Source: Gammaproteobacteria bacterium
GTDB lineage: Bacteria > Pseudomonadota > Gammaproteobacteria > UBA4575
Direction of reading: 5' to 3'
DNA length: 64,000 bases
NCBI GenBank assembly: GCA_963422595.1
Contig: OY730298.1
Location: forward strand, 244,470-308,469
Position numbers and translations under genes: made by a program. Below are positions 14,211 through 51,968 of this stretch, piece after piece. Within the stretch, counting starts at the first letter, position 1, and each line of letters starts with the position of its first letter. The notes under the pieces are model-generated. The model did no database searches. It saw only the letters and a program-made list of their open reading frames with translations, and was not told the DNA's origin.

Positions 14211-16883
14211 CTAGGAAAGTGCAGGGTCGGGTTTTTCCGGATCGATGTCGTATTTTTTAAGCGCGGCACTGATCAAGGATTTATCAATTGTCCCTTCAGC
14301 CACCAGCGCGTGTATGGCGGCCAGCACGATGTGACGAGCGTCTACTTCAAAGAAGCTGCGTAGTCGCTGGCGCGTATCGCTGCGTCCAAAACCATCTGTG
14401 CCCAGGACTATGTACTTTGATTTTACATATGGGCGAATTTGATCGGCATGAATTTTCATGTAGTCTGAAGCCGCGATAACCGGGCCTGGTGAAGCATGCA
14501 GGCATTGTTCCACGTATGGAATTTTCCGCGCACTCTGCGGATGCAGCATATTCCAGCGCTGCACTTGCATGCCGTCCCTGCGCAGCTGATTAAAGCTGGT
14601 GACGCTCCAGATATCGGCCGCGATATTAAAATCCTGCTGTAGCAGTTCTGCCGCGCGTATCGCTTCTCGCAGTATGGCGCCACTACCCAGTAATTGAACG
14701 CGCGCCCTGCCTCCCGGAGCGGCCGACAGCGTACCGGGAGATGTGTTTTTGCGCAACAGGTACATCCCCCGTACGATGCCTTCTTTGCAATCTGCGGGCA
14801 TTGCTGGCTGCGCGTAGTTTTCATTCATCACGGTAATGTAATAGAACTGGTCCAGTTGCTTTATGTACATGGCCTCAAGACCGTGATGCACGATTACCGC
14901 GAGTTCATACGCGAAAGCGGGATCATAGGCGCAACAGTTTGGAATCGTGGATGCCAACAGGTGGCTGTGGCCGTCCTGATGTTGTAGCCCCTCGCCCGCC
15001 AGGGTGGTGCGACCGGCAGTGCCACCAATTAAAAAACCGCGCGCGCGGCTGTCGCCCGCCGCCCAGGCCAGATCACCCACGCGCTGAAAACCAAATATGG
15101 AATAAAAGATATAAAACGGGATCATCGGCATGTTATGGGAGCTGTAAGACGTGGCCGCGGCAATCCAGGAAGACATGGCGCCCGCTTCTGTAATTCCTTC
15201 TTCTAAAATCTGGCCAGCCCGGCCCTCACGATAGGGCAATAATTCGTCCGCGTCGACGGGATCGTAGAGTTGTCCTTTGTGCGCGTAAATTCCCATGCTG
15301 CGAAATAGTCCTTCCATGCCAAACGTGCGCGCTTCGTCGGGTACGATCGGCACGATGTGCCTGGCAATGGACTGCTCCCGCGTCAGGGCGAACAGGATTC
15401 TAACGAATGCCGTGGTGGTTGATTTTTCGCGGCCGTTGCTTCCCGCCAGCAGGTCTTTGAAAATCCCGATGGGGGGAATTTGTAAATCGATTTCCGGGCT
15501 GTCGCGCTTCGGTAATTCTCCGCGTAATTTGTCGCGTAACTTTTTCAAATAACGCATCTCGGCACTGTCGTCCGGCGGCTTATAAAAAGGCACGTCTTCC
15601 AGTTCTGTATCTTTGAATGGGATGCGGTAACGGTCTCGAAACGCGATCAGCGAATCTTTCGCGGGTTTTTTTAGTTGATGCGCGATATTCATACTTTCAC
15701 CGCTTTTGCCTAAGCCATAGCCTTTTACCGTTTTGGCTAAAATAACCGTCGGTTGGCCACGATGTTTTACCGCTGCCGCGTAGGCCGCGTATACCTTTTG
15801 CTGATCATGGCCACCACGGTTTAAGCGCCAAATATCATCATCGGTCATGTGTGCGATAAGTTTTACAAGTTCAGGATATTTCCCAAAGAAATGTTCCCGC
15901 ACATAGGCGCCGCCCTTGGCCCGATAGTTTTGGTAGTCGCCGTCCAGGGCCTCTTCCATGCGTTTGCGTAGAATTCCTTCTTTGTCGCGCGCCAGTAATG
16001 GATCCCAGTTCCCTCCCCAGAGTACCTTGATGACGTTCCAGCCGGCACCACGAAAGTTACCTTCCAGTTCCTGGATAATTTTGCCGTTGCCGCGCACCGG
16101 ACCGTCCAATCGCTGTAAGTTGCAGTTGATGACGAAGATCAAATTGTCGAGTTCTTCACGCGCCGCTAATGAAATGGCGCCAAGGGCTTCTGGTTCATCC
16201 ATTTCTCCATCACCTGTGAATACCCATACTTTACGATTGCCCTTATCTATGATGCCGCGATCATGCAGGTATTCCATAAACCGCGCCTGGTAAATCCCCA
16301 TAATCGGCGCCAGTCCCATTGACACTGTTGGAAACTGCCAAAAATCCGGCATCAGCCACGGGTGCGGATAGGAGGATAGGCCTTTACCTGTCACTTCGCG
16401 TCGAAAGTGCCGCAGTTGTGCTTCGGTTATGCGCCCTTCAAGGTAGGCGCGGGCATATACGCCAGGCGCGGCGTGTCCCTGAAAATACACCAGATCACCA
16501 GTAAAATCGCGACTGGCAGGGCGAAAGAAATGATTGAAACCGATACTGATTAAAGTCGCCGCGGACGCATAGGTGGATATGTGTCCGCCCAGTTCGGGAA
16601 ATTTCTTATTGGCCTTGACTACCATCGCCAAGGCGTTCCAACGCTCCAGTGAACGCACGCGATGCTCCATTCTTGGGTCGCCGGGTAGACGCTCTTCAGC
16701 GTCCGCGGGGATGGTGTTGACATAGGCCGTAGTGTTACGAAATGGCAGGTTTACGCCAGCAATCCGCGCACTGTGAATAAGCCGTTCGATTATGTAGTGC
16801 GCGCGATTTGCGCCATCGCTTTCCAAAATAGCGTGCAGGGCGTCAAGCCATTCCCGCGTTTCTTGTGGATCGATATCGTCCAT
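14211..16883 (-). CDS. aceE: pyruvate dehydrogenase E1 component (homodimeric type)
   Basis: Collinear with E. coli AceE over about 885 aa (NTIP..., GDGEMDEPE, YFQGH). The probable start is MDDIDPQETREW at 16883; the ORF-track start at 16970 adds 29 non-conserved residues. Confidence 0.95.
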   Translation of the reverse strand: MDDIDPQETREWLDALHAILESDGANRAHYIIERLIHSARIAGVNLPFRNTTAYVNTIPADAEERLPGDPRMEHRVRSLERWNALAMVVKANKKFPELGGHISTYASAATLISIGFNHFFRPASRDFTGDLVYFQGHAAPGVYARAYLEGRITEAQLRHFRREVTGKGLSSYPHPWLMPDFWQFPTVSMGLAPIMGIYQARFMEYLHDRGIIDKGNRKVWVFTGDGEMDEPEALGAISLAAREELDNLIFVINCNLQRLDGPVRGNGKIIQELEGNFRGAGWNVIKVLWGGNWDPLLARDKEGILRKRMEEALDGDYQNYRAKGGAYVREHFFGKYPELVKLIAHMTDDDIWRLNRGGHDQQKVYAAYAAAVKHRGQPTVILAKTVKGYGLGKSGESMNIAHQLKKPAKDSLIAFRDRYRIPFKDTELEDVPFYKPPDDSAEMRYLKKLRDKLRGELPKRDSPEIDLQIPPIGIFKDLLAGSNGREKSTTTAFVRILFALTREQSIARHIVPIVPDEARTFGMEGLFRSMGIYAHKGQLYDPVDADELLPYREGRAGQILEEGITEAGAMSSWIAAATSYSSHNMPMIPFYIFYSIFGFQRVGDLAWAAGDSRARGFLIGGTAGRTTLAGEGLQHQDGHSHLLASTIPNCCAYDPAFAYELAVIVHHGLEAMYIKQLDQFYYITVMNENYAQPAMPADCKEGIVRGMYLLRKNTSPGTLSAAPGGRARVQLLGSGAILREAIRAAELLQQDFNIAADIWSVTSFNQLRRDGMQVQRWNMLHPQSARKIPYVEQCLHASPGPVIAASDYMKIHADQIRPYVKSKYIVLGTDGFGRSDTRQRLRSFFEVDARHIVLAAIHALVAEGTIDKSLISAALKKYDIDPEKPDPALS

Positions 16884-17105
16884 TGTAATCAGAACTTTTT
16901 TGATAAGCGGCTCATGTCGTTTATATTTACGTAAGCACGTGGCACTTGCAAGTAGCTGTAAAACGGCCACTTCGATTAAGAGTCAATGCGTCACGTTAGT
17001 TGGCACGGAACGTTAGAGCTGAAATTGGCGCCGTGATGTATATGGAAATACTATGCTCGCTGCCTGAATTTTGGCTCATGTCGTCACGCTGCTAACGTCG
17101 CACTG

Positions 17106-18286
17106 ATGATTAACAGGCGAATCGAGATTAAACCATTGATGGTCAACAATTCCGAACTTGGGCTGGCAATGACGGGCGGCGGTGCGCGTGCTGCCTATCA
17201 GGTAGGTTTGCTGCGGTTTATTTGTAGAGAATTTCCCGATTTTTGTCCGCCTGTCATCACCGGGGTCTCCGCTGGTGCAGTAAACGCGGCATATCTGGCC
17301 GCGTATCCAGGTACTTTTTGTCAGGCCGTAGAAGAATTATCGAAATTTTGGCTGGAGCTTGGCACTGATAATATCTTTCGTACCGATAGCCGTTATTTTC
17401 TGATTGGTTTCATAACGTTGGGGATTTCATTTCCTGCTTGGCGGAAGCCGGTTAGCACCACAAACGCGCGGCTTGCTGGATAGCCAGCCATTACGTTTTT
17501 ACCTGGAACAAAAATTCAATAATAAAGCAGCACTTCCGATACCGGGGATACGCCAGAATATCGCTGGCGGTCGTTTACAGGTGCTCGGTATTACCAAGTA
17601 CTAATTACAGCACTGGCAAATCGATTACCTGGATACAGGGCCAGGCACGCGATCATTGGAAACGGCCACGGCGTCGCAGTGCCTCAGTTGAAATTACCAT
17701 TGAACATATCATGGCTTCGGCAGCATTACCGCTGGTGTTTCCCGCGGTGAAGCTCAACGATGGCTGGCACGGAGATGGCGGCATACGTTCCATTGCGCCA
17801 CTATCTCCGGCTATGCATCTGGGTGCCACAAGAGTGGTGGCAATTTCCACGCGCTTTCAAGGTGCTCAGATTACTCCGGATGAACCGATGACTTCTGAGT
17901 ATGCTTCGGTAGCACAGATCATCGGCATTATACTGGACGCTATTTTTTTGGACCTGCTCGATTATGACGCCGCCAACATAGAGCGTATCAGTGAACTTAT
18001 TGAAGAGGTTTCGGAAGATACGAGAAAGCAGTTCAGGAGCGTGCAACTCTTGATTCTTCGCCCTTCCAAGGATTTAGGTAAACTTGCAAGTGAGTTTGAG
18101 TTTCGTTTGCCACAGCCATTCCGCTATTTCACGCGCAGTTTCGGCACGCGCAATACTAGAAGCCCGGACGCTTTGTCAATGTTGATGTTTCAGCATGAAT
18201 ACCTTGAGTCTCTAATTGATCTTGGCGAATACGATGCGGAACAAAATTTCGCACGTATTGAAGAATTTTTAAGCGCGAAACCATAA
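17106..18286 (+). pseudogene. patatin-like phospholipase, disrupted by frameshifts
   Basis: The N-terminal part in frame 0 has GGGARAAYQVG and the GVSAGA nucleophile elbow, then stops at 17483. Patatin-like sequence continues in frame +1 (17485-17604: LRFYLEQKF...LQVLGI) and then in frame +2 (...VEITIEHIMASAALPLVFPAVKLNDGWHGDGG...), running to the stop at 18286. Confidence 0.75.
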
Positions 18287-18338
18287 AGCCAGAGTAAAGA
18301 AAATCCCCCCGAATCCTGCCGCGAGGCGTGGTTATCAT

Positions 18339-19628
18339 TTACGCCGCCGCTGTCAGGGCCTGATCCAGGTCGGCGATAATATCAGCAACGTCTTCCAAAC
18401 CGATTGAAAGGCGTACTACGTCCGGACCGGCACCGGCGGCAATCTGCTGCTGTTCGCTTAATTGGCGATGGGTGGTGGAGGCAGGATGGATGATCAATGA
18501 GCGCGTATCGCCGATGTTGGCGAGATGTGAAAATAACTGGCAGCTTTCCACAGCTTTAATTCCCATGTCGTAACCGCCTTTTACACCAAAGGTAAAGACG
18601 GCTCCGGCACCCCGCGAGCAATATTTTTGTGCCAGTTTATGGTAGGTGCTTGATTGTAAGCCGGCATAGGATACCCAGCTAACGCGATCGTCCTGTTCCA
18701 GCCATTGGGCAACTTGCAAGGCATTTTTTGAATGCTGGTCCATACGCAAAGGCAATGTCTCAATACCCAGTAACGTAAGATAAGCATTCATCGGTGACAT
18801 CGCCGGGCCTAAATCACGCAGCCCTATCGCGTGGCTGTAGACGGTGAACGCCATGGCACCAAAAGCTTTATGGAAGTTTAAGCCGTGATAGGCCGTGCAT
18901 GGCTCGGTAATGTCTTTGAATTTATCGTTTTGTGCCCAATCAAATTTACCGCTGTCCACCACGGCGCCACCAATCGCATTTCCATGTCCCGATAAAAACT
19001 TGGTGGTTGAATGTATGACAATATCAACGCCATATTCAAAGGGCTTACATAATGCCGGCGATGCCATGGTGTTGTCGACGATGCATGGAATACCCGCCGT
19101 ATGTGCGATTTCAGCAATTTCCCCGATATCGCAGACGATGCCGCCCGGATTCGCCAGACTCTCGGTAAAAACAGCTTTCGTCTTTGATGTAATCGCCTTG
19201 CGAAAATTTTCCGGATCAACGGGATCAACGAAAATAACGTTCCAGCCAAAACGCTTGAATGAATGACCAAATTGCGTGATAGAACCACCATAAAGTTTAT
19301 TGGAGGCGATAAAGTCATCGCCACTTTTCATTAAACCGAATAAGGTGAGCAGTTGTGCCGAATGTCCGGAAGCCGTGCAGGTCGCGCCAACTCCTCCTTC
19401 TAAGTCTGCGATACGGGCCTGCAAGGTGCTTACGGTAGGATTCGTCAGGCGCGAATAAATAAAGCCTTCTTTTTCAAGGTTAAATAAAGCCGCGGCGTGC
19501 TCAGAATCCTCAAATACGAAAGAGGTGGACTGATAAATAGGCGTGCCGCGCGCACCAGTGGCAGAATCTGGCGCGGCACCCGCGTGTATGGCACGGGTTG
19601 CGAACCCATGTTGTGAATTATTATTCAC
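18339..19628 (-). CDS. metY: O-acetylhomoserine aminocarboxypropyltransferase (sulfhydrylase), PLP-dependent
   Basis: 429 aa of the Cys/Met metabolism PLP family, with the MetY-typical N-terminus (FATRAIHAG...GTPIYQSTSF), STTKF..GHG around the PLP-binding Lys, and LANIGDTRSLIIHPASTTH. Confidence 0.9.
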   Translation of the reverse strand: MNNNSQHGFATRAIHAGAAPDSATGARGTPIYQSTSFVFEDSEHAAALFNLEKEGFIYSRLTNPTVSTLQARIADLEGGVGATCTASGHSAQLLTLFGLMKSGDDFIASNKLYGGSITQFGHSFKRFGWNVIFVDPVDPENFRKAITSKTKAVFTESLANPGGIVCDIGEIAEIAHTAGIPCIVDNTMASPALCKPFEYGVDIVIHSTTKFLSGHGNAIGGAVVDSGKFDWAQNDKFKDITEPCTAYHGLNFHKAFGAMAFTVYSHAIGLRDLGPAMSPMNAYLTLLGIETLPLRMDQHSKNALQVAQWLEQDDRVSWVSYAGLQSSTYHKLAQKYCSRGAGAVFTFGVKGGYDMGIKAVESCQLFSHLANIGDTRSLIIHPASTTHRQLSEQQQIAAGAGPDVVRLSIGLEDVADIIADLDQALTAAA

Positions 19629-19827
19629 GTTGACTCCTTATGTAGTTAGCCAGTCAGATATTTTTGTTTATTTTATGACTTAAATAGCTGAAGATATACC
19701 CCTTCCATGAGAACGCTATCCTGACGTGCCTGCGGAACCTCGGCTGTTTTCGCCACCCCAACAGTTATGCCGCTTTATCCTGTATATATTCTTTTGAACT
19801 ACACATTATCCTGGTTACCAGGTTATT

Positions 19828-20277
19828 ATGCCTGGTCTTCACGAATCAGAACCAGGCATTCACGATATGAATGATAAATCTCCAGAATTATTGGTCGTGC
19901 AGCTAAACGGCTCGGCAATTCTTGAATATGATCGCAATCAACAGTTATCGAAGGCCCAGCGTCGGGCGCTTACATTGATGGATGAAAAATTGGATCAGGG
20001 AATAAGCCTGGGCGATGAGTTCATCCCGCAACCCGGTTTAGAGCAGCGTGTCGAATTCATCGCCGCGAATTTGGTTTCTGCTTTGTTAAATGCAGAGGAC
20101 GTGCTGGCCGCCGCAAGTTGCGCATATCTGGCGAAGGCGTTACCCGAACTGAAACAGATCAAGGCATTGGAAAAAAGTGGCCAGGTAGCAATCGAGTTAA
20201 TCTTCAACCGTGAATACCAAAAAGAAGTAAAAATGCAGTATAAACCTTTAAGTGAAATTGCCACGTCGCTACATTAA
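19828..20277 (+). CDS. hypothetical cytoplasmic protein
   Basis: 149 aa, predicted soluble helical protein, divergent from metY. No family was recognised. The start may be the internal MNDK at 19867. Confidence 0.5.
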   Translation: MPGLHESEPGIHDMNDKSPELLVVQLNGSAILEYDRNQQLSKAQRRALTLMDEKLDQGISLGDEFIPQPGLEQRVEFIAANLVSALLNAEDVLAAASCAYLAKALPELKQIKALEKSGQVAIELIFNREYQKEVKMQYKPLSEIATSLH

Positions 20278-20511
20278 ATCTCCTCTGTCTCCTGAATATT
20301 AAGGGGCTTAGTCTACCTGTGGATACGGCCAGGGTTTTCAGATGAAGGATGAAAAACTACCTGCCTGAGGCCTGTTGGTGAAGAAAAGCAATTATTTGGA
20401 GCAGTCTAATGTGGGAAAACCCCGGTGGGGACAAAATATTGGCAATGGACAATTCGTAGAGTCTTTTAAGCGCTTGAAGTCGCCAATGAATTACACTATG
20501 CTGATGATGCT

Positions 20512-20928
20512 ATGACCCCTGAGTTAATCGGAATTTTAGGCGTTGGCGCTGCCCTTGCCGGGCTGATTTTTACTGGTCAGCGAAACCTGGGACAACGCAT
20601 CAGTGAAACTAACCAGCGCATCAGTGAAACTAACCAGCGCATTGATCGGCTGGACGCTCGCATTGATGAAACCAATCAGCGCATGGATGATATTAACCAG
20701 CGCATTGATGATATTAACCAGCGCATTGGTCGGCTGGACGTTCGCATGGATGATACTAACCAGCGCATTGATGATATTAACCAGCGCATTGATGATACCC
20801 ACCAGCGCATTGACCAGCTGGAAGTTCGCATGGATGGACGGCTGCGGGACGTAGAGCATGGCATGGCCAGGCTGGAAGGTTTACTTGAAGGCCTGCGCGA
20901 AGCAATTGCCGGCAGACGTGCTGCATGA
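20512..20928 (+). CDS. membrane-anchored coiled-coil protein built from tandem heptad repeats
   Basis: An N-terminal TM helix (LIGILGVGAALAGLIFTG) is followed by twelve 7-aa repeats (QRISETN / QRIDDIN variants), each encoded by one 21-bp unit, and then a C-terminal helix (GRLRDVEHGMARLEGLLEGL). Confidence 0.6.
   Translation: MTPELIGILGVGAALAGLIFTGQRNLGQRISETNQRISETNQRIDRLDARIDETNQRMDDINQRIDDINQRIGRLDVRMDDTNQRIDDINQRIDDTHQRIDQLEVRMDGRLRDVEHGMARLEGLLEGLREAIAGRRAA
20593..20844 (+). repeat. 12 tandem copies of a 21-bp unit (consensus CAGCGCATTGATGATATTAAC), in frame within the CDS
   Basis: Direct reading shows units at 20593, 20614, 20635 and so on up to 20824. Several units are identical or near-identical (20677, 20698 and 20761). 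Confidence 0.9.
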
Positions 20929-21228
20929 ACACAGTTGGTATCGTCCGAACCGGTCCGCCGTCTGCCAGTCAGCGAGGCATGGCCAGGCGCCAACATTAAT
21001 ACTGTATTAGCAGTTAAAGCTCCGAAACCATTACATAATTAGTAGTCAAAACAATGACTTAAAAAGTTTCCCGGCAGGGCCGTTGTTTCTCTGCAACAAA
21101 AGTTTCATAACCGTAAGCAATAATCTTGCGGAATACCATACAAATAGACAAGGGAACTTGTTAAGTTTTTCTTAGACTTAAATTTAAGTGTGTAATTTTC
21201 GAATAAAATCAGGGGGATAATTAGGTGT

Positions 21229-21498
21229 GTGTTTTTGCTATTGTTTTGGATCATGCCAATCAGGATGTTAAAAAGCGTATTAAAGACAAATATCCAAATT
21301 ACTATTCCATGTCAGACACTTTTTTTTCTTGTCTCTACAGATGTCATCGCAGAAACTATCGCGATTAATGTTGGGATTAAAGGCGATGATCGTATTGAAG
21401 ATGCAAACGGCGTTGTTTTCAGGCTGAAAGCTTCATATTCAGGCTACGCTGCGCGTTCTCTTTGGGACTGGCTTGCGCAGGCCGAAAAACGGGGATGA
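21229..21498 (+). CDS. hypothetical protein, probably frameshifted at a T8 tract (the reading frame should join upstream frame 21228-21327)
   Basis: A frame beginning GTG 21228 (VFAIVLDHANQDVKKRIKDKYPNYYSMSDTFF) terminates shortly after the T8 run at 21320-21327. The downstream two-thirds of this ORF (LVSTDVIAETIAINVGIKGDD...YSGYAARSLWDWL) read as a globular protein. The ORF-track N-terminus (MFLLLFWIMPIRML) is poorly protein-like. Confidence 0.35.
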   Translation: MFLLLFWIMPIRMLKSVLKTNIQITIPCQTLFFLVSTDVIAETIAINVGIKGDDRIEDANGVVFRLKASYSGYAARSLWDWLAQAEKRG

Positions 21499-21785
21499 GC
21501 GTGTCGCAGCTTAAATCTATGGAAAAATTTCAACCTGAACCGAACACCTCGGCAACGTCAGAGGACGGAGGCGATGGAACTAATGGAGACGATGGAACTA
21601 ATATTGAAGGGCGGCTGGCAAGATTGGAAACCCACATACAATATCTTGCTACAAAAGAAGATATTCAAAGAATTGAGACCTTAATAGAAAAAAAGGAGTC
21701 ATCAATATTAAAGTGGCTGGGAACCCTCATAACTGCTGCTTTAATCAGCATAGTGGTTGCCTTGTTCAGGACATTTTGGTCTTGA
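21495..21785 (+). CDS. small protein with a coiled coil and a C-terminal TM helix (XhlA-like topology)
   Basis: 96 aa starting at MSVSQLK. It has an acidic Gly/Asp-rich region containing the duplicated GDGTNGDDGTN, a coiled coil (IEGRLARLETHIQYLATKEDIQRIETLIEK), and a C-terminal TM helix (WLGTLITAALISIVVALF). It overlaps the upstream ORF's stop. There is no homology evidence. Confidence 0.45.
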   Translation: MSVSQLKSMEKFQPEPNTSATSEDGGDGTNGDDGTNIEGRLARLETHIQYLATKEDIQRIETLIEKKESSILKWLGTLITAALISIVVALFRTFWS

Positions 21786-22444
21786 TTATTGCCCTTTACC
21801 GGATTGTGTATTGTCCCTCGCGTTTCCCGTTCTCATAGAATCGCCCGGTGCCAATAAGCACATCAGCAGGAAGTTTGTCAGGCGTTTCGCGGAACGTAAG
21901 TATATAACTCTCATTTTCAAGGTAGTTGGAGTTGTCATTTTTTTTTGGCTTTAATGTGAAACGCGCGCATGGAATATTTAATAGCTGGTTTCATTGTATA
22001 GCGAATTACCTTTACCAAGAGAAGGCTTGATGACTGGATTACGACAGTGGAATATTTTTGCCGTAACGAACGTAGCGCGCGACTGTCATACTGCCTGCTG
22101 CCGGGTGGTGGATTGCTGTTAATGGAACACTTTCACGACAATAGGGGATAGTTGGAAACAGGATTGCATATTGTGGTTAAATTACAACAAAAATAGCTTG
22201 ACTTGCCGCCGTGCACAAGGCATCCTGTCGTGCAAATGCAACGCCTGTTGTATTTGTCCTGATATGTGAAGTTAATAAAGGATTGCTGACGTTCACCTTC
22301 AGGTTGAGAATGAATCATGCCAAAGGAGGTAATGCACCCTAAGTGAATTAAGGGCCGCAATAAGCGCATAGTGAGTTCTTTAACAACCAGGAAAATTACT
22401 CGAGTATTTTTCTTTGATTAAAAAACTGAAGAGGAGAATCTTCA

Positions 22445-23761
22445 ATGAAAATTAAACTATTAGGAGCCGCGCTTGCACTCGGCATGGTGACGTTGCCACT
22501 GGCATCGTTCGCTGGTGTCGGTGGTGGCAACGCGAACTCAAACTGGACCATCTACGGTTGGCAGAACTGGGCAGCGGACCACAGGTCAACTGACGTGGCT
22601 GGCCGTGAACGCGACCAGATTAAAATGGAAAACGAGGCCGCCAACATCGGCTTCGCAGCTTCCATTGACACTGGTATGTCCATGGCTGGTACGGCCATCA
22701 AGGCTAACTTCCAGTGTGAACAGTTCACCACCTTTAACCGCTTAAGTGCGTTTGGTCATAACGGCTGGTGTAACCGTAACAGCAAATTAGGCCTTAGCGG
22801 CCCTTGGGGTGAAATCATGGCATCCGGCTGGCTGACGCCTTATAACGAGGTAACCGCCCAGTCTATAGACCCCTTCTATGACGCCGGCAGTCACACCCAT
22901 TCCACCCTGCTTGGCCTGGTCGGCTTCGGCACCAACTACGGTAACTCTGGCTTTGACGGCACAGGTTACGGAAGCGGTGTAGGCGGACAGGGCTTCATGC
23001 GCCGCAAGGCCAACATGTTCCAGTGGTTCTCACCCGCCAGCTGGGGCGGCCTGCACGTGCGTGTCGGCTGGTCAAATGACAACTCCTATCACTTTGGTGG
23101 TGAAGAGCATGTGGTAACCACCAGCACAGGTGAGAGTAAGGAGGTAGACCCGGAAATATTGTCCATCGGCGCTTCCTACACCACCAAGATTGGCAACGAC
23201 GAGTTGTGGGTGGCCATCGGTTATCAGCAACATGACGAATGGGCAGCTGCTGCCATGTCATGTGAAGACTCTGATGACGAAACTATCCGCTATGCCGTCA
23301 AGTTCACCAAGGACTGGGGCAACGGTCATTCTACCCGTCTCTCTGCTGCCTATGAAGACATGGAATACGACTGGGAATACTGTGCTGAAACTGGGAATGG
23401 GCCATTTGCTGGATCAATGGTCGATTTCGAGCGTGATGCCTGGTTAGTCTCTGGCAAGCACGACTTCCCCGGCCCGCTGGACTTCCGCTTTATGTACATG
23501 GAAGCCGACGACTTTGAATGCGGTAGCTCTATGGCCATGGGTGATAATGATTGTAACGGCATCAATGAGACTAATTCCGGTGCTGACGCCTTCTCCGTCG
23601 GTCTGTATTACACCATGCCCGCCGGTACCGAGTTGCGACTGGTCTATGGTGAAGTAGATAACGACGATAACTCCCAGAATGACTTCGGCATCAATGCCGA
23701 TGGCGTTCGTATGGGTGGAAAAAACGAAAGCTGGCAAATCGGTATGGTGCAGTGGTTCTAA
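22445..23761 (+). CDS. outer-membrane porin (general Gram-negative porin-like beta-barrel)
   Basis: Signal peptide (MKIKLLGAALALGMVTLPLASFA), Gly/aromatic-rich amphipathic strands, and a C-terminal aromatic residue (..MVQWF) typical of OM beta-barrels. A strong terminator follows. Confidence 0.7.
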   Translation: MKIKLLGAALALGMVTLPLASFAGVGGGNANSNWTIYGWQNWAADHRSTDVAGRERDQIKMENEAANIGFAASIDTGMSMAGTAIKANFQCEQFTTFNRLSAFGHNGWCNRNSKLGLSGPWGEIMASGWLTPYNEVTAQSIDPFYDAGSHTHSTLLGLVGFGTNYGNSGFDGTGYGSGVGGQGFMRRKANMFQWFSPASWGGLHVRVGWSNDNSYHFGGEEHVVTTSTGESKEVDPEILSIGASYTTKIGNDELWVAIGYQQHDEWAAAAMSCEDSDDETIRYAVKFTKDWGNGHSTRLSAAYEDMEYDWEYCAETGNGPFAGSMVDFERDAWLVSGKHDFPGPLDFRFMYMEADDFECGSSMAMGDNDCNGINETNSGADAFSVGLYYTMPAGTELRLVYGEVDNDDNSQNDFGINADGVRMGGKNESWQIGMVQWF

Positions 23762-50410: not shown

Positions 50411-51295
50411 CTAAACCGTTTCTCCAGTCAAAAGCGTGCAGGCCTCCAGATATTTTTTGCTCGTGTTTTGAATTATTTTGTGCGGTAATTTCGGGCCCGG
50501 CGGCTTTTTATCCCAATCCAGTGTTTCCAGATAGTCACGCACGTATTGTTTGTCAAAACTTTTTGGATTGATGCCCGGCATATAAGACTGTTGTGACCAA
50601 AAGCGTGAGGAATCCGGGGTTAAAACCTCATCAATCAGAGTAATGCCTTCATTTTCATCTATACCAAATTCAAATTTAGTGTCGGCAATGATGATGCCGC
50701 GCGTTAAGGCATACGCGGCCGCTTCGGTGTATATCTGCATGCTGATGTCGCGAACCGACTCGGCAACTTGCTTGCCAACCAACTTTACAATCTCATTGAA
50801 ATTTATATTTACGTCATGACTACCAGCTTTTGCTTTAGTGGATGGAGTGAATATTGGATGGTCAAGCCGCTGCGCTAGTTGCAGGCCCTTGGGAAGCCCT
50901 ACCCCGCAGATCGAGCCGCTGTTTTGATATTCCTTCCAGCCAGACCCGATTATGTGGCCGCGCACGATTGCCTCAAAAGGTAATGCCTGTAGTTTGCGCA
51001 CGATGACGCTGCGACCCTGTAACATTTGACGTTCCTGTGTATCACTGATGATTTCTTCAACAGATATGCCGCTGAGATGATTGTTGACTTTGTTCAGGAG
51101 ACGTTGAAACCAAAAATTGGAAACCTTCGTAAGTACCATGCCTTTTTTGGGGATGGGGTCAGGCAGCACTACGTCAAATGCGGAAATCCGATCAGTAGTA
51201 ACTATGAGTAAATGTTGCGAGTCGACTTCATAGAGGTCCCGAACTTTGCCCTGGTAAAGCCTGCGGAGAGAATTTAGCCCGGATTCAAATAACAT
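50411..51295 (-). CDS. purC: phosphoribosylaminoimidazole-succinocarboxamide synthase (long form)
   Basis: 294 aa SAICAR synthetase (GKVRDLYEVD, TDRISAFD, IIADTKFEFG). Confidence 0.95.
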   Translation of the reverse strand: MLFESGLNSLRRLYQGKVRDLYEVDSQHLLIVTTDRISAFDVVLPDPIPKKGMVLTKVSNFWFQRLLNKVNNHLSGISVEEIISDTQERQMLQGRSVIVRKLQALPFEAIVRGHIIGSGWKEYQNSGSICGVGLPKGLQLAQRLDHPIFTPSTKAKAGSHDVNINFNEIVKLVGKQVAESVRDISMQIYTEAAAYALTRGIIIADTKFEFGIDENEGITLIDEVLTPDSSRFWSQQSYMPGINPKSFDKQYVRDYLETLDWDKKPPGPKLPHKIIQNTSKKYLEACTLLTGETV

Positions 51296-51320
51296 GATTG
51301 ATTTTAGAACAGATTATGTA

Positions 51321-51479
51321 CATGGACGTTCAGGATAATGTGTAATTACATAGATTCAAACATGGATGTACAGGAATGTGTATTAAGAGATTCAAATATG
51401 GATTTACAGGATAGTACGTAATATTATTGTTCAGGACAGGCACGGAGCCTGTCCCTACAAGATCAACAGGTAAAATAAA
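51321..51479. repeat. three tandem ~40-bp copies of the catggatgtacagga module, then a hairpin module, filling the purC/purE divergent promoter
   Basis: Units at 51321-51360, 51361-51396 and 51397-51436. They are followed by GGACAGGC-acggag-CCTGTCC (51434-51456) and CAACAGGTAAA just before the purE ATG. These are homologous to copy A at 50231-50303. Confidence 0.75.
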
Positions 51480-51968
51480 ATGGTTGACCCACAAGTGAGC
51501 CTGATTATGGGTAGTGATAGTGATTGGTCAGTAATGCAGGCGGCAGCAGAGATTCTGCATCAATTTGATGTGTTGTACGAGAGGCGCGTGGTATCCGCAC
51601 ATCGCACACCTGATGCTATGGCGGAGTTTTCGCATTCCGCCAGGGGGCGCGGTATTCGCTGTATTATCGCGGGTGCAGGGGGTGCCGCGCACTTGCCGGG
51701 TATGGTGGCCGCCATGACGACCGTGCCGGTGCTGGGGGTGCCGGTTCCAGGTGAGCACTTGTGCGGACAGGATTCGCTGTATTCGATTGTGCAGATGCCA
51801 AAAGGCGTGCCGGTGGCGACGTTTGCCATTGGCGTGGCTGGTGCTGCCAATGCGGGGTTGTTCGCGATTGCGACGTTGGCGATAAACGATGTGGAATTAA
51901 AGCGAAAACTGGATGAATTCCGAACTTTGCAAACCTCAAAAGCACTGAGCACTCAGCTTCCGGACTAG
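51480..51968 (+). CDS. purE: N5-carboxyaminoimidazole ribonucleotide mutase
   Basis: 162 aa: IMGSDSDW, AGGAAHLPGMVAA.T..PV.GVP. Confidence 0.95.
   Translation: MVDPQVSLIMGSDSDWSVMQAAAEILHQFDVLYERRVVSAHRTPDAMAEFSHSARGRGIRCIIAGAGGAAHLPGMVAAMTTVPVLGVPVPGEHLCGQDSLYSIVQMPKGVPVATFAIGVAGAANAGLFAIATLAINDVELKRKLDEFRTLQTSKALSTQLPD

Follow-up and report, generated by a model that had tools for sequence, protein, structure and literature searches.

Several described systems join a membrane anchor to a helical rod or stalk, and the gene discussed here resembles a number of them in one feature or another. It lies at positions 20512-20928 of a stretch of 64,000 nucleotides (nt) on contig OY730298.1 from a gammaproteobacterium of the UBA4575 lineage; the whole of this stretch is called the window below, and the 138-amino-acid (aa) product of the gene the window protein. 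Among the systems that come closest are the Pf3 coat-type substrates of YidC. They have a very short acidic N-terminal tail, one transmembrane (TM) helix and basic residues right after the helix, and this charge pattern sets an orientation with the N-terminus out and the C-terminus in (N-out/C-in). The window protein has the same arrangement. However, the Pf3 coat is a 44-aa phage protein without a coiled-coil rod, we found no sequence similarity between the two, and the family to which the window protein belongs is absent from viral, phage and plasmid collections.

The YhcB/LapD (DUF1043) and DUF948-type proteins are alike in size (about 130 aa) and likewise have an N-terminal TM helix followed by a cytoplasmic coiled coil; DUF948 gives a match over the TM helix and the first heptads, which at 31.1 bits stays below its cut-off of 37.2. 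But these families are single-copy, they lack both tandem repeats at the DNA level and the C-terminal tip LEGLLEGLREAI of the window protein, and no DUF1043 match was returned. Proteins of the DUF1640/MCUR1-CCDC90B type, which are often multi-copy in bacteria, are small membrane-anchored coiled coils whose stalk links a conserved end to the anchor, yet in them the TM helix is C-terminal and the conserved head N-terminal, and the window protein has no PF07798 match. Rz-type i-spanins again start with a TM helix that is followed by a coiled coil, and they are matched in PHROG at E-values of about 1e-6. Unlike them, the window protein has no o-spanin partner, no cysteine and no phage context, and the short members of its family lose these matches.

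Two further comparisons concern rods at the cell surface. The stalks of trimeric autotransporter adhesins (YadA, SadA, EibD) share the mixing of heptads and hendecads, the polar core, the R-x-D-like pattern and the variation in repeat number, but they belong to large, surface-exposed proteins with a signal peptide and an outer-membrane beta-barrel anchor, whereas the window protein would be anchored in the inner membrane with a rod predicted to be cytoplasmic. In the streptococcal M and alpha C proteins, a helical rod becomes longer or shorter as in-frame tandem repeats recombine or slip, as we propose here; however, their signal peptide, LPXTG anchor and immune selection have no counterpart among the features of the window protein. 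Lpp may be named as a further anchor-stalk-tip protein that resembles it in function. In the end, the protein belongs to none of the curated families against which it was tested.

In our opinion, the gene encodes an inner-membrane-anchored, cytoplasm-facing coiled-coil tether or spacer with a stalk whose length varies by slippage, and we would put the probability of this reading at roughly 60%. Our confidence is high in its structural and evolutionary parts and low in the cellular role. The parts of the gene, all on the + strand, are the following.

20512-20928, +: complete gene for a 138-aa bitopic membrane protein, from the list of open reading frames (ORFs); ATG start, stop codon at 20926-20928.
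20512-20592, +: N-terminal anchor read from the sequence, with the acidic tail MTPE, a hydrophobic helix at about residues 5-22 (20524-20577) and the basic juxtamembrane segment QRNLG.
20593-20844, +: 12 in-frame heptad units of 21 bp, equal to three super-repeats of 84 bp (28 aa), from Tandem Repeats Finder (TRF) and lag identity.
20593-20676, 20677-20760 and 20761-20844, +: the three super-repeat blocks, with 67/84, 68/84 and 60/84 positions identical.
20596-20642, +: perfect 21-bp repeat of 2.2 copies, a duplication of QRISETN (TRF 100% match, score 94; 26-nt exact run at lag 21).
20694-20791, +: longest pair of exact direct repeats, two 35-nt copies at 20694 and 20757 with an offset of 63 bp.
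20830-20925, +: conserved C-terminal module MDGRLRDVEHGMARLEGLLEGLREAIAGRRAA (residues 107-138) in continued heptad register, from alignments A1 and A4.
20872-20907, +: family signature LEGLLEGLREAI (residues 121-132), which includes G123-x3-G127-x3-A131, from the invariant columns of A1 and A4.

Codon 28 begins at 20593, and from there to 20844 the sequence divides into 12 x 21 nt with no remainder and no indel, all in frame, just as an earlier note made from the letters of this DNA had described it. The units read QRISETN, QRISETN, QRIDRLD, ARIDETN, QRMDDIN and QRIDDIN (1-6), then QRIGRLD, VRMDDTN, QRIDDIN, QRIDDTH, QRIDQLE and VRMDGRL (7-12); the last of them already falls within the C-terminal module conserved in the family (MDGRLRxVEHG...). 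At lag 21 the nucleotide identity reaches 0.66, compared with 0.25 +/- 0.03 for shuffles of the same bases (z = 14), and TRF detects the array. As a description the 21-bp unit holds in frame, but the dominant period is 84 bp, or four heptads (TRF score 335, 86% match, lag-84 identity 0.80), and the array can be written as 3 x [QRIxxxN QRIxxxN QRIxxLD (A/V)R(I/M)Dxxx].

We disagree with the earlier note regarding the age of the array. Its statement that several copies are nucleotide-identical goes too far: units 6 and 9 are the only identical ones in this register, the pairs 1/2, 5/6, 5/9 and 3/7 agree at 20/21 positions, and the mean pairwise identity is 65%. The recent expansion that it proposed is borne out by one event, the 21-bp duplication at 20596-20642, which looks to be the only clearly recent gain of a unit. 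For the rest it does not hold, since most units are 20-35% diverged in nucleotides and the 84-bp blocks, compared with one another, disagree at 16-24 of their 84 positions (19-29%). The longest exact direct repeats measure 26 nt (lag 21), 35 nt (lag 63) and 28 nt (lag 84). Other ORFs overlap the repeat at 20536-20859 and 20676-20996 on the - strand and at 20603-20854 on the + strand, and these overlapping or antisense frames are by-products of the repeat; the frame of 20512-20928 is kept at the protein level in thousands of relatives.

In the protein the heptads stay in register all the way from residue 28 to the C-terminus (...VRMDGRL RDVEHGM ARLEGLL EGLREAI AGRRAA). Position a is hydrophobic (I/M/V/L) in 15/15 heptads (a = IIIIMIIMIIIMVLL), position d is T, L or I in 12/15, and Arg occupies position g throughout the 12 repeat heptads. 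The rod has no Cys, and there is no Pro after residue 3. Run on a single chain with an alignment of 27 family sequences, AlphaFold2 models residues 3-137 as one helix without interruption (mean predicted local distance difference test score, pLDDT, 91.7). Both the periodicity and the continuous helix that mark the coiled-coil structural class are thus found, which supports, from sequence and model, the view that the units are heptads of a coiled-coil-type helix and bears out the stalk proposed earlier. Most likely the rod forms a parallel homo-oligomeric coiled coil, and its core composition alone (Ile/Met at a, Thr/Ile/Leu at d, the R-x-D pattern) suggests a trimer. Coiled-coil geometry allows 0.148 nm per residue, so that the 111 residues beyond the anchor would extend over about 16 nm, roughly 1 nm per heptad.

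The heptads RIDETNK and RIDDTNQ also recur in two proteins of other architectures, P0040 from a Thermodesulfovibrio metagenome-assembled genome (MAG) and P0050 from Spirulina sp. One of the two has no TM helix, the other a C-terminal one, and neither has the LEGLLEGLREAI tip. This makes the R-I-D-x-T-N-x heptad a building block that recurs in coiled coils outside the family.

The earlier note had also placed a TM helix at the N-terminus and a non-repetitive helix at the C-terminus. Indeed both are present, and the C-terminal helix proves to be the motif that defines a family. A search of the window protein against 5.8 billion proteins gave 645 matches; the 138-aa protein itself is not present in that collection. 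The specific ones among them have the architecture M-x-x-E plus a hydrophobic helix, a repeat region of widely varying length and a nearly invariant end, ...RLRAVEHGQA(K/R)LEGLLEGLREAIAGRxAA. The window protein shows both defining features, that is, an acidic N-tail with one TM helix and ...VEHGxA[KR]LEGLLEGLREAIxGR.. within about 10 residues of the stop. Residues M1, E4, L9 and A14 of the anchor are conserved across the family in alignments A1 and A4, and LEGLLEGLREAI is invariant in both. The C-terminal module (residues 107-138), of which the window holds a single copy, is 90% identical to the family consensus, and in these alignments the tip (window positions 20872-20925) carries a small-residue face, G-x3-G-x3-A, beside a leucine face.

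The profile of A4, which is the alignment of short members, was searched against 1.84 billion representatives of 50%-identity clusters; it retrieved 2,725 of them at E<=1e-3 and 275 at E<=1e-10. At E<=1e-8 there are at least 3,798 proteins, counted as representatives of 90%-identity clusters. None of the proteins matched by the A4 profile carries an informative name. Residues flanking the search pattern are conserved as well: A at -2 (99%), E at +9 (99%), A at +10 (97%), I at +11 (88%) and R at +14 (80%). Each of these uses 2-6 synonymous codons, R at +14 all six, in 90 distinct DNA versions. Given that the amino acids are conserved while the codons vary, the tip motif is a protein-coding and not a nucleotide element, and the tip is under selection at the protein level. 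The chain ends in Ala-Ala in 49/95 family proteins, which recalls C-terminal degradation tags; we mention this as an observation only.

We found no specific match for the family in Pfam, NCBIfam, PHROG or PADLOC, and no description of it in literature searched for the motif, the accession numbers and coiled-coil proteins of sponge symbionts. The family appears to be undescribed so far. Weak matches came up by the dozens to hundreds in these libraries and in a PDB profile search, and those to SMC, Rad50, apolipoprotein, XhlA, spanin, DUF948, DUF5798, LXG and viral fusion proteins were rejected as coiled-coil composition, because such weak matches vanish for the repeat-poor members of the family (P0001, P0097, P0057, P0094, P0113, P0073). 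Only two Pfam models are formally above their cut-offs. DUF5798 (31.8 vs 27) covers the repeats only, and there P0001 scores 12.8 and the other short members nothing; LXG (27.0 vs 26.5) is matched by the window protein only, over the repeats, and P0001 does not reproduce the match. As many as 169 Pfam families appear on the window protein at E<=1, which is the signature of coiled-coil noise. Weak profile matches in PDB are mostly to trimeric coiled coils, fragments of SadA and EibD included, and their E-values of 1e-2 to 1e-4 reflect composition, not homology.

The earlier note had suggested a search for homologues with differing repeat counts, and had stated that a change in copy number would alter the length of the stalk without breaking the frame. 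The search was positive, and the differences come in whole in-frame units. We compared 95 distinct proteins from 78 genomic loci. Their lengths range from 68 to 169 aa (median 109), and 19/78 loci hold two to four copies, mostly in tandem. Tandem paralogues step by whole units (L021, L016, L035, L050, L059); at the first of these loci, it is only the count of RRFEQVD heptads that sets four genes of 79, 93, 100 and 107 aa apart. Between assemblies, pairs of near-identical proteins are one unit apart, either a heptad (P0002/P0013, P0015/P0085) or an 11-mer (P0005/P0012). In two gammaproteobacterial MAGs the orthologous locus L005/L028 has flanks of 96-98% identity over several kilobases; apart from a single clean in-frame indel of 105 bp (5 x 21), the genes themselves share about 99% identity. 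Whole-unit, in-frame length differences are thus real between paralogues and between orthologues of the family, at loci other than that of the window.

For the window locus itself, an exact search with the 26-nt flank in JGI metagenomes returned nothing, and its source genome is absent from the best 80 loci of our scan of species representatives. Protein P0001, with 89 aa and 5 heptads, has an anchor and a tip nearly identical to those of the window protein and is probably a paralogue in the same genome. The shortest members are nearly stalk-free (P0097 with 75 aa; 68-aa genes in L061 and L067).

Does the length of the stalk matter? The strongest competitor to our reading is that it does not, and that the stalk is a low-complexity spacer under weak constraint, made of drifting slippage products, in which only anchor and tip matter. 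In our opinion this has a substantial chance of being right, though somewhat short of even, and as a description of the length differences it may well be correct. The repeat sequence and its period differ from lineage to lineage (e.g. RIDETNK, RFEQVDx, RIDRLDG, the 11-mers RIDETNKSLGA and RLDAKIDGLES, and longer units of 18, 22, 25 and 29 residues), the lengths show no preferred value, and the almost stalk-free members speak for the same. However, the dominant periods among the 95 relatives are 7, 14, 21, 28, 11, 22, 18, 25 and 29, all sums of 7 and 11 as a coiled coil requires, which argues that structure and not sequence is maintained. Periods stay compatible with a coiled coil and the register to the tip is kept, and this shows selection on structure, albeit not on length. 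Paralogues of different length are also kept side by side, which could mean that several lengths are used or that the duplications are recent.

We now turn to the orientation of the protein in the membrane, on which the cytoplasm-facing part of our reading depends. Averaged over 93 family proteins, the N-tail is 4.1 aa long and contains 0.03 K+R and 1.0 D+E, while the 15 residues after the TM helix contain 3.9 K+R, and in 93/93 of them K+R after the helix exceeds K+R before it. From this charge distribution, by the positive-inside rule and by analogy with Pf3 coat-type YidC substrates, an N-out/C-in topology is predicted, and the rod probably lies on the cytoplasmic side of the inner membrane.

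The opposite topology, N-in/C-out, would make the protein a periplasmic strut or an i-spanin-like protein of the Rz type, with a coiled coil that spans part of the periplasm. The architecture of TM helix plus coiled coil is indeed the same, and PHROG returns phrog_89 (E=5.8e-7) and phrog_739 (E=1.9e-6), but both matches are lost for the short P0001 and P0097 and hence reflect coiled-coil composition. The protein has no Cys, no lipoprotein ORF is adjacent or embedded (none with a lipobox was seen in 20400-21500), and the neighbours are metY and a porin instead of a lysis cassette. There are 0 relatives in 2.9 million viral contigs (IMG/VR), and none in 50,697 phage records (INPHARED) or 72,556 plasmids (PLSDB). 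Given that the charge bias also opposes it, we consider this orientation improbable.

We also disagree with the analogy to contingency repeats of surface proteins that the earlier note had drawn. In that explanation the gene would be a contingency locus for a surface-exposed stalk, in which size or antigenic variation is driven by host or phage pressure, as in M, alpha-C or adhesin-like proteins. Part of the analogy stands: the repeats are in frame and similar enough to slip, with exact stretches of 26-35 nt, the number of repeats varies among relatives, and the hosts include animal symbionts. Export and surface anchoring, however, find no counterpart here. The window protein has no signal-peptide-like basic n-region, no lipobox or Cys, and no outer-membrane or cell-wall anchor, and the acidic N-tail together with the charge pattern of 93/93 relatives predicts a cytoplasmic rod. 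In Gram-negative cells a protein anchored in the inner membrane is unable to reach the cell surface, and the carrier lineages are, as we take it, mostly Gram-negative groups. The units, moreover, are mostly diverged (65% mean identity). A surface contingency locus is in our view quite improbable.

Could the product be a small toxin that acts on the membrane, or a holin-like peptide, for instance from a type I toxin-antitoxin or abortive infection module, with the coiled coil controlling its oligomerisation in the membrane? The genes are indeed multi-copy, patchy in distribution and stand-alone; weak XhlA and holin-type matches exist, and one copy adjoins an Eco57I-type restriction enzyme. But the matches are all below curated cut-offs and attributable to the composition of coiled coil and TM helix. 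PADLOC defence proteins (SMC, JetC, LmuB) were matched through coiled-coil segments on the long protein only, and no PADLOC family matches short members such as P0001 and P0097. The neighbours are mostly metabolic genes and not defence islands, and a conserved soluble rod of 100 residues with a tip is atypical of type I toxins. This explanation strikes us as very improbable. Hardly credible is the idea that the number of units seen in the window arose through faulty assembly: the Logan contig of the same DNA (L081, run ERR11641160, window positions 16579-20648) does end inside the repeat at 20648, but it is 100% identical over the compared 20278-20648 up to its end, which lies where the paralogue presumably diverges and is probably k-mer assembler behaviour, a break being expected from branching at the repeat or at P0001. 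At 65% identity the units differ sufficiently for reads of more than about 300 nt to assemble without ambiguity, and frame and register to the conserved tip are intact.

How would an anchored, cytoplasm-facing tether with a variable stalk work? The anchor, a 4-residue acidic N-tail with one TM helix, would be constant, as would the tip, ...VEHGxA[K/R]LEGLLEGLREAIxGRxAA, and the helical rod of about 111 residues between them would project from the inner face of the inner membrane into the cytoplasm. Replication slippage or unequal recombination between exact stretches of 26-35 nt would lengthen or shorten this rod by whole structural units. Here the exact repeats may allow gain or loss of 1, 3 or 4 heptads, or about 1, 3 or 4 nm, with the 35-nt pair as the candidate substrate for a change by three heptads. 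Frame and register to the tip would be preserved, because the tandem unit in the DNA equals one or more structural repeats. The tip would then be the functional end, an oligomerisation trigger and/or a docking site for a partner, held at a lineage-specific distance from the membrane.

Three points weigh against this proposal. The positive-inside rule is the sole basis of the predicted topology. Most units are old, given the 19-29% divergence of the 84-bp blocks, so that the instability of the array at the present day may be low. Finally, the gene has no conserved neighbour or partner, and the tether role is hence without direct support: all-against-all BLAST of 450 ORFs within 3 kb at the 78 loci revealed no conserved partner gene, and Pfam places the 138 ORFs that flank the family genes most closely in 95 families, for the most part metabolic enzymes, none of them present in more than 3 loci.

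The 78 best genomic loci all lie in MAGs, which represent about eight phyla, and the family has so far turned up only in uncultured bacteria. By record title the taxa are Alpha- and Gammaproteobacteria, Acidobacteriota (Terriglobia, Vicinamibacterales, Bryobacterales), Latescibacterota, Spirochaetia, Dehalococcoidia, Binatia and Candidatus Entotheonella, a list that presumably fits the usual community of high-microbial-abundance sponges. Four carrier MAGs are sponge-derived, namely COS1_bin_16, COS4_bin_33 (Acidimicrobiia), COS4_bin_55 and RHO3_bin_12, and their hosts are Coscinoderma matthewsi and Rhopaloeides odorabile (PMC8163846, supplementary file 9).

It is tempting to speculate further. 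The genes may form an undescribed family across at least eight phyla, seen only in uncultured bacteria (verified in four sponge-symbiont genomes) and often in several tandem copies per genome, of membrane-anchored rulers or tethers whose stalk length is actively diversified while a conserved tip acts on a common target; the family would then be a niche-specific adaptation spread by horizontal transfer and not an ordinary structural protein. We regard this wider picture as doubtful, and offer it as a suggestion.

The family is a sizeable one outside the curated libraries, with thousands of sequences and no Pfam or NCBIfam model, and thus a lead for family curation. Its design, with a constant anchor and a constant tip between which the stalk is repeatedly rebuilt from 7- and 11-residue units, offers coiled-coil research a natural experiment in which helical rods grow and shrink without loss of register. 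To microbiome research it presents a candidate gene shared by symbionts of sponges, and possibly of other invertebrates, from unrelated phyla. No established concept is changed by these results; their value is that of a lead and not of a surprise.

Around the gene, the window holds the following neighbours.

18339-19628, -: O-acetylhomoserine sulfhydrylase-type pyridoxal phosphate enzyme (metY), on the same side as a 149-aa ORF.
21462-21785, +: 107-aa ORF for a small coiled-coil membrane protein with the TM helix at its C-terminus, the opposite polarity to the window protein.
22445-23761: porin, beyond the 107-aa ORF.

The 149-aa ORF, which has no assigned function, is the neighbour of the gene on the metY side; neither it nor the 107-aa ORF has homologues at other loci of the family. 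Within the latter, an 18-bp tandem duplication (21567-21602) encodes GDDGTN twice, and the product gives weak PHROG matches to phrog_6136, to phrog_6324 and to a holin family. Unusually long spacers surround both small coiled-coil genes (20278-20511, 234 bp; 20929-21461, 533 bp; 21786-22444, 659 bp), in which we found no ORF, no RNA-family match or tRNA, and no convincing promoter or terminator. A 13-nt tip-coding repeat, GGCATGGCCAGGC, occurs at 20860 and again at 20976, downstream of the stop; it is too short to be called the relic of a second copy.

Some associations at other loci deserve mention. At L002/L007 (OY730441) a family gene lies directly downstream of a 1,373-aa restriction enzyme of the Eco57I type, and in P0062 the family module is fused to the C-terminus of what we take, reading by eye, to be a restriction-modification methylase. 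We treat both as incidental, the pattern not being seen at other loci. At L034 (OZ251449, 9860-10843) a DUF1640-like coiled-coil ORF (...FDTLTYARRLKAAGV...) stands directly upstream of a short family gene and reads through into it, which is probably a coincidence; the genome concerned has at least seven family copies at five loci. Elsewhere in the window, a 36-bp tandem repeat of 2.5 copies (51320-51413; 81% match, with indels) lies between the ORFs 50411-51295 (-) and 51480-51968 (+).

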